Source: Buttiauxella sp. (GTDB taxonomy: Bacteria > Pseudomonadota > Gammaproteobacteria > Enterobacterales > Enterobacteriaceae). From it: 64,000 bases of DNA. Both the position numbers and the translations under genes were made by a program. The DNA lies in assembly GCF_049686335.1 (NCBI RefSeq), contig NZ_JBAVHX010000006.1:1083-65082 (forward strand), given 5' to 3'. A model generated the notes under the pieces. That model searched no databases. It worked only from the letters and a program-made list of their open reading frames with translations, and was not told where the DNA came from. Shown here in pieces: positions 10,320 to 15,041 of the stretch (position 1 is the first letter of the stretch; every line of letters begins with the position of its first letter).

Positions 10320-12836
10320 ATGGACAGTCAACAAGGCAGCCATTTACTGGCTATTCCTAACCACAAATCAGAAGCAGAACAGCAACCAAAGACCGAACTG
10401 GACTTTGTTTTCAAGCGCTCCCTTTTTTGGCGTCCAACCTACATTGCCCAATCCGCTTGGTTAGAACACATTCCATTTGCTTTCTGGTTATTGGAAACAC
10501 TGCGCCCCCGCAAGGTTGTCGAGTTGGGTACCCATTACGGCAGTTCTTATTTTTCATTCTGCCAGGCAGTGACAAAGCTGGATCTCGAAACTCTCTGCTT
10601 TGCTGTTGATACTTGGGGAGGAGACGAACATGCTGGACAGTACGGGGAGGAGGTCTATGGGCAAGTATCTGAATATAACCAACAACACTACTCAGGTTTC
10701 TCTACCCTTATCCGCAGCACATTCGACCAGGCATTAGACCATTTCCCTCAAGGCAGTATTGATTTACTTCATATTGATGGTTTGCACACGTTCGAGGCGG
10801 TACGACATGACTTTGAAAGCTGGCTGCCGAAGCTCTCTGAAAAAGCCGTTGTGATTATGCACGACACTAATGTGCGAGAACGTGGGTTTGGTGTATTCCA
10901 GCTTCTGGATGAGCTAAAACAGCAGTACCCTCATTTTGAGTTTGCCCATGGTCATGGCCTTGGGGTGATTGGTGTGGGGAGTGAGCAGTCTTCAGAAATG
11001 AAGAGCCTGTATGGTATTTCAGAAAATGCTCGTGCCACCAAACAAGTACATGAAATATTTTCTCGCCTGGGTAAAGCCTGTGGTGATAGTTGGGAAAATA
11101 ACCAGTTAAAACGTCAACTAACGTTACAGCAAGAAGAGCTACAGGCGGAACATCAACAACTGATGGAACAACAGGCCCTCGAGCGGGGGCGTCTTGCTGA
11201 AAGAATCACTGCCCAGCATCACAATCTGACCACATTAGAAAGCAAACTTGAGCATTATAAATCATTAGAAGGTGAGCAATCTGCTCAACGGCAGGAGCAA
11301 CTCACTACTCAAGAACAGGCTCAAAAGCAGTTACAACAGCAACTTAATGAACAGGCGCTACAACTTAGCGAAGAGACCCAGAGAACTGCGCAACTGACCC
11401 TTGCTCTGAGCAAGAGTAACGTGGCACTCACCGAGCACTCACGCCAACTTACCGCACTGCAGCACCATTTGGAGCAAGCTCTACACACACAGGACTCACA
11501 ATCTCGCACAATGGTCGAACGAGATAACACGGTGAACCTGCTGCAACAAAGAGCTAATGCTCTTTTGCAACAACTTGAAGATGAGAGCCAAACCAAAAAT
11601 CAACTGCAGCGCGCATACGGATTGCTTGAAGTCCAATATGAAGCTCTATGCAAAGAACGCGATGGCTTGCGTCAGACCAACATCAACCTGCTTGAACAAG
11701 TTGATGTTGCCTCGGTAGTAAGGCAACAGTTACAGCTCCAGATAGATGAACAAGAAAGGGTATTGGAATCTGCTCATCAGCGGTATGAAGAGCTGACGCA
11801 GGTTCTTACCGACAAAGCACAAGAGGCATCCCAATGGCAGATGCAATGCGAATCCTTGTCTGTCGATCTGGATGCAAGCCGTTTGCTGCTTGAGCAATAT
11901 GAAACAACCAAGCGAATCTGGCAGGAGCAAGAACAAGCGCTTAATACCACAGTGGAAGAGCGTTTTGCCGAAATTGCGGCACTGACTCGAATGCTTGAAG
12001 AGCAAACCCAGACCATTAGTGCGCAAGCGGCGGAATACGAGCACTTGAGCGCCCAATTACACGCTACGCAGCAGCAATTACAGGCTGAACAAGCACAGCA
12101 TCAAATAAGTATGCAAGCGTCAGCAGAGTTTGCTGCAGAGCAAGAGAAACAGGTTAGCGAACTCAAAAAGATGCTAGATGAGCGCTTCAATGAGATAGCG
12201 TTACTCACTCGTATTCTGGAAGAACAAACTCGGACCATTGATGTGCAGGCTGTAGAACACGAGCGTTTGAATATCCAGCAGCAAACCTTCCAGCAACAGG
12301 CAGCCCAGCAACAGACCCAACTAGACCTCCGTGTGGAAGAACTGGTTAAACATAACGACGGACTGGAAGCCAATATTTCCGAGCGTTTTCGTGAACTGGC
12401 TATCATGACAAATTTGATAGAGCAGCAAGGAAGAGAACTCAGTAATAGTGAACAGCAGATTGAGCGGCTAAAAGCTCGCATAAATAAACTTAAAGGAACA
12501 GTGTCTTGGCGTTTGACTGCACCAGTGAGAGCATTGGCAAAGCCCTTCAAGGTTTCGCCAGCATACAGCATTAGCCAAATTAATATAATTGCAGAATCTG
12601 GGTATTTCGATGAAGTATGGTATCGCCAACATTATCCTGCTGCTGGGAATAACACCTCAGCGATTGAACACTATCTGAATATTGGCGCAGTGAATGGCTA
12701 TAACCCGAGCTCTAAATTCGATACCCGCTGGTATATTAATACGTACCCTGATGTAGCTAATGGAGACATAAACCCACTTTTGCATTTCATTTTGCATGGG
12801 CAACACGAAGGGCGACTGTGTCACTCACAGTCTTGA
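10320..12836 (+). CDS. Class I SAM methyltransferase + long coiled coil + C-terminal FDxxWY repeat module
   Basis: VELGTHYGSS and IDLLHIDGLHTFEAVRHDF (Methyltransf_24-like); Q/E/L-rich heptads ~11090-12500; SWRLTAPVR at 12504-12530; FDEVWY/FDTRWY repeats. Confidence 0.85.
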   Translation: MDSQQGSHLLAIPNHKSEAEQQPKTELDFVFKRSLFWRPTYIAQSAWLEHIPFAFWLLETLRPRKVVELGTHYGSSYFSFCQAVTKLDLETLCFAVDTWGGDEHAGQYGEEVYGQVSEYNQQHYSGFSTLIRSTFDQALDHFPQGSIDLLHIDGLHTFEAVRHDFESWLPKLSEKAVVIMHDTNVRERGFGVFQLLDELKQQYPHFEFAHGHGLGVIGVGSEQSSEMKSLYGISENARATKQVHEIFSRLGKACGDSWENNQLKRQLTLQQEELQAEHQQLMEQQALERGRLAERITAQHHNLTTLESKLEHYKSLEGEQSAQRQEQLTTQEQAQKQLQQQLNEQALQLSEETQRTAQLTLALSKSNVALTEHSRQLTALQHHLEQALHTQDSQSRTMVERDNTVNLLQQRANALLQQLEDESQTKNQLQRAYGLLEVQYEALCKERDGLRQTNINLLEQVDVASVVRQQLQLQIDEQERVLESAHQRYEELTQVLTDKAQEASQWQMQCESLSVDLDASRLLLEQYETTKRIWQEQEQALNTTVEERFAEIAALTRMLEEQTQTISAQAAEYEHLSAQLHATQQQLQAEQAQHQISMQASAEFAAEQEKQVSELKKMLDERFNEIALLTRILEEQTRTIDVQAVEHERLNIQQQTFQQQAAQQQTQLDLRVEELVKHNDGLEANISERFRELAIMTNLIEQQGRELSNSEQQIERLKARINKLKGTVSWRLTAPVRALAKPFKVSPAYSISQINIIAESGYFDEVWYRQHYPAAGNNTSAIEHYLNIGAVNGYNPSSKFDTRWYINTYPDVANGDINPLLHFILHGQHEGRLCHSQS

Positions 12837-15041: not shown

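Follow-up and report, generated by a model that had tools for sequence, protein, structure and literature searches.

What sets the length of the polysaccharide chains in capsules exported by ABC transporters (groups 2 and 3) is an open question, to which a possible answer comes from a capsule locus in a 64,000-nucleotide stretch of DNA from Buttiauxella sp. (contig NZ_JBAVHX010000006.1, positions 1,083 to 65,082 of the forward strand), here called the window and numbered from its first letter. Directly after kpsE lie the genes for P0001, a methyltransferase with a long coiled coil, and for its neighbor P0002. A first-pass annotation had compared this pair with WbdD, which caps the E. coli O9a O-antigen and measures its length, and with the polymerase WbdA; both open reading frames (ORFs) are as it described them. 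The reading we favor makes P0001 a sugar O-methyltransferase that terminates chains: borne on a long coil and tethered to P0002, it would serve as both cap and ruler. We give this reading about an even chance of being correct. It draws on the following features.

10320-12836, + strand: P0001, 838 aa, first gene of region 2 (ORF and domain search)
10320..11105, + strand: methyltransferase head, residues 1-262 of P0001 (Methyltransf_24, AlphaFold 2 (AF2), Foldseek)
11103..12503, + strand: coiled-coil region, residues ~262-728 (composition, NCBIfam, AF2)
12504..12530, + strand: SWRLTAPVR motif, residues 729-737, at the end of the coil
12576..12833, + strand: C-terminal helical domain, two FDxxWYxxxYPDV...NPLxHYxxxG modules (AF2, predicted local distance difference test (pLDDT) ~90)
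12861..15041, + strand: P0002, 726 aa (ORF and domain search)
15047..16117, + strand: P0003, GT2_4/GT92-like glycosyltransferase, cassette member (Pfam, comparison with the metagenomic relative L037)
12411..16631, + strand: exchangeable cassette, comprising the last ~142 codons of P0001 together with P0002 and P0003 (window compared with L037)

The N-terminal S-adenosylmethionine (SAM) methyltransferase proposed earlier is borne out by a match to Methyltransf_24 at residues 67-183 (Pfam, E 4.8e-25) and by an AF2 model of the head (pLDDT 87) with a confident O-methyltransferase fold. The nearest solved fold found by Foldseek is that of MeT1 from M. hassiacum (6g80, with 6g7d; E 3e-10; TM-scores 0.58 by query length and 0.70 by target length), followed by Mg-dependent catechol-type O-methyltransferases; MeT1 differs in being only 17-19% identical and in having neither coil nor tail. 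MeT1 uses SAM to O-methylate a sugar in methylmannose polysaccharide, at the 1-OH of the reducing end rather than at a non-reducing end. Across 27 diverse homologues from several phyla, E68, G70, G74, H151 and H181 of the head are invariant, while D97 and D153 are each kept in at least 90%. Because the SAM motif and the His/Asp positions are conserved and the fold matches, the head is likely an active O-methyltransferase. The domain search of P0001 found no kinase domain. By sequence comparison, the head is the best-conserved part of P0001 and is conserved like the export genes: it is 80-86% identical among the window, E. coli and Aeromonas, similar to the 78-83% of KpsD, KpsE and KpsM (KpsT, ~91%) against their counterparts in E. 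coli loci.

These observations bear on the suggestion that P0001 has a mainly structural role, as a coiled-coil scaffold in the cytoplasm by which capsule assembly sites are positioned or clustered, while its head is inactive or acts on something other than a glycan. The FDxxWY module of the tail, a generic repeat in many large polysaccharide enzymes, speaks for such a role. The (near-)invariance across phyla of the SAM-binding motif and several His/Asp positions speaks against it, as do the fold, which is that of small-molecule and sugar O-methyltransferases, and the concentration of conservation in the head itself; we consider a mainly structural role very improbable.

Beyond the head, no proline occurs between residues 204 and 735, and Gln, Leu and Glu together make up 46% of residues 262-728. 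There are weak NCBIfam SMC matches, AF2 helices bracket the region (one from residue 237 to the end of the head construct, another up to ~727), and InterProScan 'Coils' matches appear among the entries of a published supplement for the 857-aa E. coli orthologue. On these grounds the earlier figure of about 470 residues of coiled coil is a fair one. A hydrophobic 3.5-residue Fourier signal is present but patchy along the coil and is not part of the main evidence. Such a coil could span at most ~70 nm, an upper bound that holds for a fully extended parallel coil. An extended coil between an N-terminal candidate terminating domain and a C-terminal tail is what coiled-coil terminators have, and Kelly et al. 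2024 (PMC11231755) describe the coil as a hallmark of this strategy among O-antigen systems.

The length of the coil varies widely. Three ERFxExAxxT modules lie within it, at residues 547, 621 and 688; among 119 close homologues the number of modules per protein runs from one to six, and between head and SWR motif lie 412 to 826 aa, a distance that takes at least 39 different values. Between lineages, the central part of the coil cannot be aligned at the DNA level. In a small sample of clusters, uncorrected for phylogeny, nearly all proline-free stretches longer than 370 aa belong to Kps contexts (the window, Massilia and Nitrosomonadales, at 531-790 aa); the one exception is a 376-aa stretch in Noviherbaspirillum with no kps genes within 10 kb. 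In homologues from other or Wzm/Wzt-type clusters the stretch measures 47-331 aa. Longer coils in Kps contexts fit capsule chains that are longer than O-antigens.

The coil ends at the SWRLTAPVR motif, found at residues 729-737 as first noted. Within the six frames of the window, the word SWR.T occurs only once inside a real gene. Some E. coli and Enterobacter homologues have SWRMTAPVR, and distant homologues in Pantoea, Methylocella and Vicinamibacterales have coil-end forms such as STSWR(L/V/I)TxPLR. The first-pass annotation expected a similar SWR(M/L)TA motif at the end of the WbdD coil. WbdD of E. coli HS (O9; L041:27966-30092) does carry RSRSWRMTKGYRYLG at residue 594, immediately after its coil, in the stretch ...EIEKIHRSRSWRMTKGYRYLG...; the SWRMT part of that expectation therefore holds, and the following Ala does not. 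In a BLASTP comparison of P0001 with this WbdD, only the coil end and SWRxT align, and the two motifs fall in register (pairwise E 0.012).

We nevertheless reject homology of P0001 to WbdD: the search of PDB sequences gave no match, BLASTP aligned nothing beyond the coil end, and WbdD is absent from the 50 Foldseek matches listed for the head, the nearest of which is MeT1. What stands is an analogy of architecture. WbdD (E. coli O9a/O8, equivalent to K. pneumoniae O3/O5, with polymerase WbdA) has an N-terminal chain-modifying enzyme, a coil and a C-terminus that recruits the polymerase, itself the product of a separate gene (PMC11231755), an arrangement proposed here for P0001 as well. It also has a SWR(M/L)T motif directly after the coil, and its gene adjoins those of the polymerase and the ABC transporter. 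The two proteins differ in that the P0001 methyltransferase belongs to another family (Methyltransf_24, MeT1-like) and has no detectable sequence similarity to that of WbdD, in the lack of a kinase domain, in a coil about 3.5 times longer, and in a C-terminus made of the FDxxWY helical domain where WbdD has basic amphipathic helices. The systems differ too: the O9a primer is undecaprenyl-PP-GlcNAc, whereas here KpsCS would supply a lipid bearing Kdo (3-deoxy-D-manno-octulosonic acid), and the exporter in the window, KpsMT, has no cap-binding module. The comparison made in the first-pass annotation thus survives for domain order, coinheritance of tail and glycosyltransferase (GT), fused forms and motif, and fails for homology, the kinase and a cap reader on KpsT.

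Fused forms place the same elements in one chain. Candidatus Pantoea deserta encodes a 1405-aa protein consisting of head, short coil, STSWRVTKPLRF, three modules, and RgpF-like and GT2-like parts; in Pantoea rodasii the parts of this fusion are split over two genes. Luteolibacter has a 1401-aa fusion, and in several Acidobacteria head, modules and GT are fused without a coil. By analogy, the order of head, coil and tail is that of the proven terminators WbdD, WbbB (K. pneumoniae O12) and ORF6 (K. pneumoniae O7); the last two have terminator, coil and GT modules in succession, the layout of the Pantoea and Luteolibacter fusions. ORF6 combines an N-terminal methyltransferase with rhamnosyltransferase modules (PMC11231755). 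The window differs from both in encoding terminator candidate and GT separately; the ORF6 methyltransferase moreover resembles CgnL and is paired with a kinase, and WbbB terminates with a Kdo residue.

Two further relatives are interrupted. In Pantoea septica (L014:9761-13806), the ORF encoding the head terminates short of the coil end, and the next ORF starts at STSWRVTKPLRF; in Noviherbaspirillum (L007:9914-12535), the head-coil gene is split in two. Frameshifts, errors of assembly or genuine splits at module boundaries would account for these breaks.

P0002, encoded immediately downstream, matches Glyco_tran_WbsX over essentially the full profile (residues 124-461, profile 2-350 of 350, E 2.6e-132) and RgpF over only its C-terminal half (residues 476-699, profile 266-498 of 503, E 1.4e-43), so that of the two domains previously named for this gene the first is complete and the second partial. 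It also shows faint sequence similarity to GH99 enzymes; the literature on WbsX/GH99-like glycosyltransferases offered nothing useful. P0002 is predicted to be a glycosyltransferase, and is a putative polymerase or part of one.

The tail of P0001 is inherited with this enzyme. Up to nt 12410 the window and L037 share 94% identity; the alignment resumes, at 98%, only at nt 16632, by the start of ugd, and the sequence between these points cannot be aligned. The E. coli chromosomal loci L045 and L046 break at the same position, ~147 codons before the stop. The last ~142-147 codons of P0001 have thus been swapped together with the downstream GTs in both lineages in which the breakpoint was mapped, and in both the break falls at the same place inside the P0001 gene and not at a gene boundary. 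In Aeromonas, similarity through the head ends short of the tail, and two loci have different tail-GT pairs. Tail type A (SWRLTAPVRALAKPFK...HGQHEGR) precedes a WbsX-RgpF protein in five of five loci (window, L038, L039, L040, L045), and tail type B (SWK(L/I)TAPVRA...HGKAEQRHC) precedes an ~805-aa dual-GT2 protein in nine of nine (L001-L006, L008, L037, L046), a match between tail type and downstream GT type in all 14 loci read. By these alignments, P0001 evolves as three modules: head, coil and tail. Both types of partner plausibly include a rhamnosyltransferase, because one has RgpF and the other a GT2 domain resembling, at 42% identity, the conserved 679-aa GT2 encoded further downstream.

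In the AF2 model, a low-confidence linker of ~22 residues containing the SWR motif precedes the tail domain. The tail domain is collinear with the first 90 residues of P0002 (34% identity); the WbsX-RgpF protein starts with two FDxxWY modules and the dual-GT2 proteins with one. A PDB fold search with the tail domain gave no match, and inspection of the tail as a possible membrane- or polymerase-recruiting region revealed no clear amphipathic membrane helix. No Pfam model covers the FDxxWY module and no PDB fold matches it; with a profile, 31,398 representative proteins are recovered, 6,122 of them at E<=1e-30, and in these the modules often occur in arrays of up to 19 attached to Methyltransf_11, GT2, GT4 and GT61 domains. 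The double module FDxxWYxxxYPDV...NPLxHYxxxGxxEGR at window positions 12576-12833 and 12861-13130 thus represents a very large uncharacterized family. One member, P0126 (2198 aa), has 19 FDxxWY stretches between an N-terminal methyltransferase and GT domains, in the place where a coil would be.

The surrounding genes form a group-3-type kps locus, a single co-directional block at 5279-29018 (Pfam, NCBIfam), and supply the KpsMT/KpsCS context recognized from the start, with kpsD, kpsM, kpsT and kpsE upstream of P0001 and kpsC and kpsS downstream of it.

5044..5051, + strand: ops-like GGCGGTAG, ahead of the operon, at the position expected of a JUMPstart element (count not above chance)
5279..5650, + strand: small lipoprotein-like ORF, 123 aa, at the head of the operon (41-82% identity in related enterobacterial and Aeromonas loci)
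5656..7449, + strand: kpsD, outer-membrane export (Poly_export and SLBB)
7504..8307, + strand: kpsM, ABC permease (NF050053 KpsM, E 2.2e-45)
8319..8969, + strand: kpsT, ABC ATPase, 216 aa (ABC_tran domain only)
8984..10186, + strand: kpsE (TIGR01010 BexC/CtrB/KpsE, 465 bits, above cut-off)
16646..17812, + strand: ugd, UDP-glucose 6-dehydrogenase (domain matches)
17903..18280, + strand: conserved 125-aa ORF, just upstream of the GT92-like gene
18339..22409, + strand: conserved three-glycosyltransferase block, comprising GT92-like, 679-aa GT2 and GT1-like genes (domain matches)
22472..25440, + strand: rmlB, rmlD and rmlA (domain matches)
25597..29018, + strand: kpsC and kpsS, Kdo-linker transferases (Capsule_synth)

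The order kpsD-M-T-E, region 2, kpsC-S is that of E. coli group 3 capsule loci, which consist of kpsDMTE, a serotype region and kpsCS (PMC10433991), and, as in those loci, the three-GT block and the rml genes lie upstream of kpsC. Hong et al. named the block wckUVW and proposed that it makes a rhamnose-containing linker (PMC10433991). The E. coli loci carry a 'putative methyltransferase' gene of the same family in the same place after kpsE; the window differs from them in its host, another member of the Enterobacterales, and in lacking rmlC within the locus (the E. coli loci have rfbBDAC). A housekeeping protein encoded in the flank shares 92% identity with Enterobacter and E. coli proteins, which agrees with a host in this order. 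The sole copy of rmlC in the genome is on contig 15 (G000:C15:81728-82249), where it presumably belongs to the O-antigen cluster.

This context supports the main rival to a terminating role, in which P0001 methylates a conserved rhamnose-containing adaptor or linker beside the poly-Kdo primer and its coil is an assembly scaffold that measures nothing. The head is indeed conserved like the machinery genes and not like serotype genes; the gene co-occurs with rml and the three-GT block, the proposed source of the linker; and relatives in Beta- and Gammaproteobacteria also have rml and parts of the three-GT block nearby. There are kps plasmids with the same export genes and no P0001-type gene, which have Stealth and TagF-like polymerases, no rml and no three-GT block; because kps loci without the gene also lack these genes, the P0001-type gene goes with rhamnose. 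A head tens of nanometers from the membrane would, however, be badly placed to act on a membrane-proximal linker, and the GT-fused homologues occur in Wzm/Wzt-type or kps-less clusters, where no Kdo linker is expected. Methylation of the adaptor would also leave the hypervariability of the coil and the matching of tail to polymerase unexplained, and we regard it as unlikely.

If P0001 is a terminator and ruler, assembly might proceed as follows. KpsS and KpsC would make the Kdo-lipid primer, to which the conserved three-GT block would add a rhamnose-containing adaptor, and P0002, with P0003, would extend the chain at the membrane. Through its tail (SWRxT and the FDxxWY domain), P0001 would be held at the polymerase or membrane, with its head up to ~70 nm away, so that a chain would be O-methylated at its non-reducing end, probably on rhamnose, only once it was long enough to reach the head. 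Methylation would stop growth, and KpsMT-KpsED would then export the finished chain. We infer chain-end methylation, the acceptor sugar, binding of the tail to P0002, a parallel extended coil and an effect on chain length from the domain layout, its comparative genomics and its precedents. A rhamnose acceptor shared among serotypes is suggested for the conserved head because the gene co-occurs with rml. More tentatively, and with somewhat less conviction than doubt, we propose that group 3-type capsules in general combine an O-antigen-like logic of primer, adaptor, polymerase and terminator with KpsCS and KpsMT, in which a hypervariable coil ruler would set chain length and with it capsule thickness, gains and losses of ~50-75-residue ERFxExAxxT units would retune it, and the FDxxWY plug would re-pair the head with new polymerases when cassettes are exchanged.

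Several observations weigh against P0001 as terminator and ruler. No cap-reading module is present on KpsT, whose 216 residues match ABC_tran only, so the ATPase could not gate export as in O9a; the Wzt proteins encoded beside the Pantoea homologues also lack a cap-binding module. We know of no O-methyl group reported in the known structures of E. coli group 3 K antigens, a point tempered in that one methyl per chain of more than 100 sugars could have been missed. A head conserved across cassettes is unusual for an enzyme that recognizes a serotype-specific chain end. Coinheritance of tail and GT could be plain linkage of adjacent DNA and is, by itself, no proof of binding for that reason, and so common a module as FDxxWY need not be a specific dock and may be a general accessory domain. 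As for the ruler, a monomer model cannot separate a parallel extended coil from a folded-back hairpin, and natural differences in coil length show only a slight and statistically non-significant excess of multiples of seven (p 0.08-0.24). Finally, the P. aeruginosa common polysaccharide antigen (CPA) methyltransferases PA5457 and PA5459 have WbdD-like sequence and no coil, and did not act as chain-length terminators (PMC3560663); we considered them as a precedent and rejected them, and they stand instead as a caution.

Some of these same points would suit an enzyme that methylates internal residues as a non-stoichiometric decoration, with coil and tail keeping it near the polymerase and chain length set by export, as in K. 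pneumoniae O2a. KpsT without a cap reader fits such an arrangement, as do the CPA methyltransferases, which do not terminate chains (PMC3560663), and the prevailing view that ABC-transporter capsules have no terminating residue, exemplified by the Hib (Haemophilus influenzae type b)-type ABC capsule pathway described by Kelly et al. 2024 (PMC11231755). On the other hand, the head of a decorating enzyme should change from one serotype cassette to the next, which this head does not, and why an enzyme acting along the whole chain should need a 400-800-residue spacer is not obvious. The group 3 repeat units are not known to contain O-methyl sugars. We consider decoration rather improbable.

Should P0001 prove to be a terminator and ruler, it would be the first for a Kdo-primed capsule, would explain the presence of the gene in ~1% of complete E. 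coli genomes, including enterotoxigenic E. coli (ETEC) and bloodstream isolates, would offer a means of producing capsule polysaccharide with chains of defined length, and would provide a function for the FDxxWY repeat family (>31,000 representative proteins). The first-pass annotation knew of no terminator for KpsC/S-primed capsules, and our search of the literature likewise found no paper proposing one. Members of the family have been described before. A 2026 paper mentions the variable coil of the E. coli members and proposes no function (PMC13171606); Hong et al. 2023 place a SAM methyltransferase first in region 2, with substitutions clustered in its last 263 bp, and likewise propose no function for it (PMC10433991). 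With the gene already catalogued and the family annotated, what is new is the function proposed here, which would bring a known strategy to a pathway supposed to do without it.

More than 3,000 proteins match P0001, with lengths of 779-1197 aa, in Aeromonas, E. coli, Leclercia, Enterobacter and Citrobacter. P0001 is 44-57% identical overall to the E. coli versions and ~80% in the head. Among 5,426 complete E. coli genomes, 67 have a gene of the family (54 chromosomal copies and 14 on plasmids), located right after kpsE as in the window; the three chromosomal loci inspected adjoin gsp genes. The version in strain ATCC 43886 is 857 aa long, in a locus with the same gene order as the window, and strain Z1002 provides another example. 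The commonest E. coli allele (816 aa, 353 indexed blocks; L001-L003) lies in a locus that ends in insertion sequence (IS) elements after a NeuB/CMP-transferase set; neither the three-GT block, rml nor kpsCS was found there within 10 kb, and it may be a truncated or rearranged capsule locus.

Two small ORFs accompany the system. The conserved 125-aa ORF has counterparts with 62-66% identity in those E. coli and Silvania loci that were checked, and relatives with 26-31% identity lie near homologous clusters in Massilia, Noviherbaspirillum and a metagenome-assembled genome (MAG) of Nitrosomonadales. We considered it as a stand-alone cap reader; Pfam and PDB searches gave no match, and a role as a separate binding module is pure speculation. 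The lipoprotein-like ORF before kpsD is kept in every related enterobacterial and Aeromonas locus seen, where it is annotated only as hypothetical, and loci without the methyltransferase gene have a hypothetical ORF of ~124 aa in the same position. At the other end of the locus, directly after kpsS and on the opposite strand, the window encodes a TraF_2-type outer-membrane beta-barrel protein (29034-30275, - strand).

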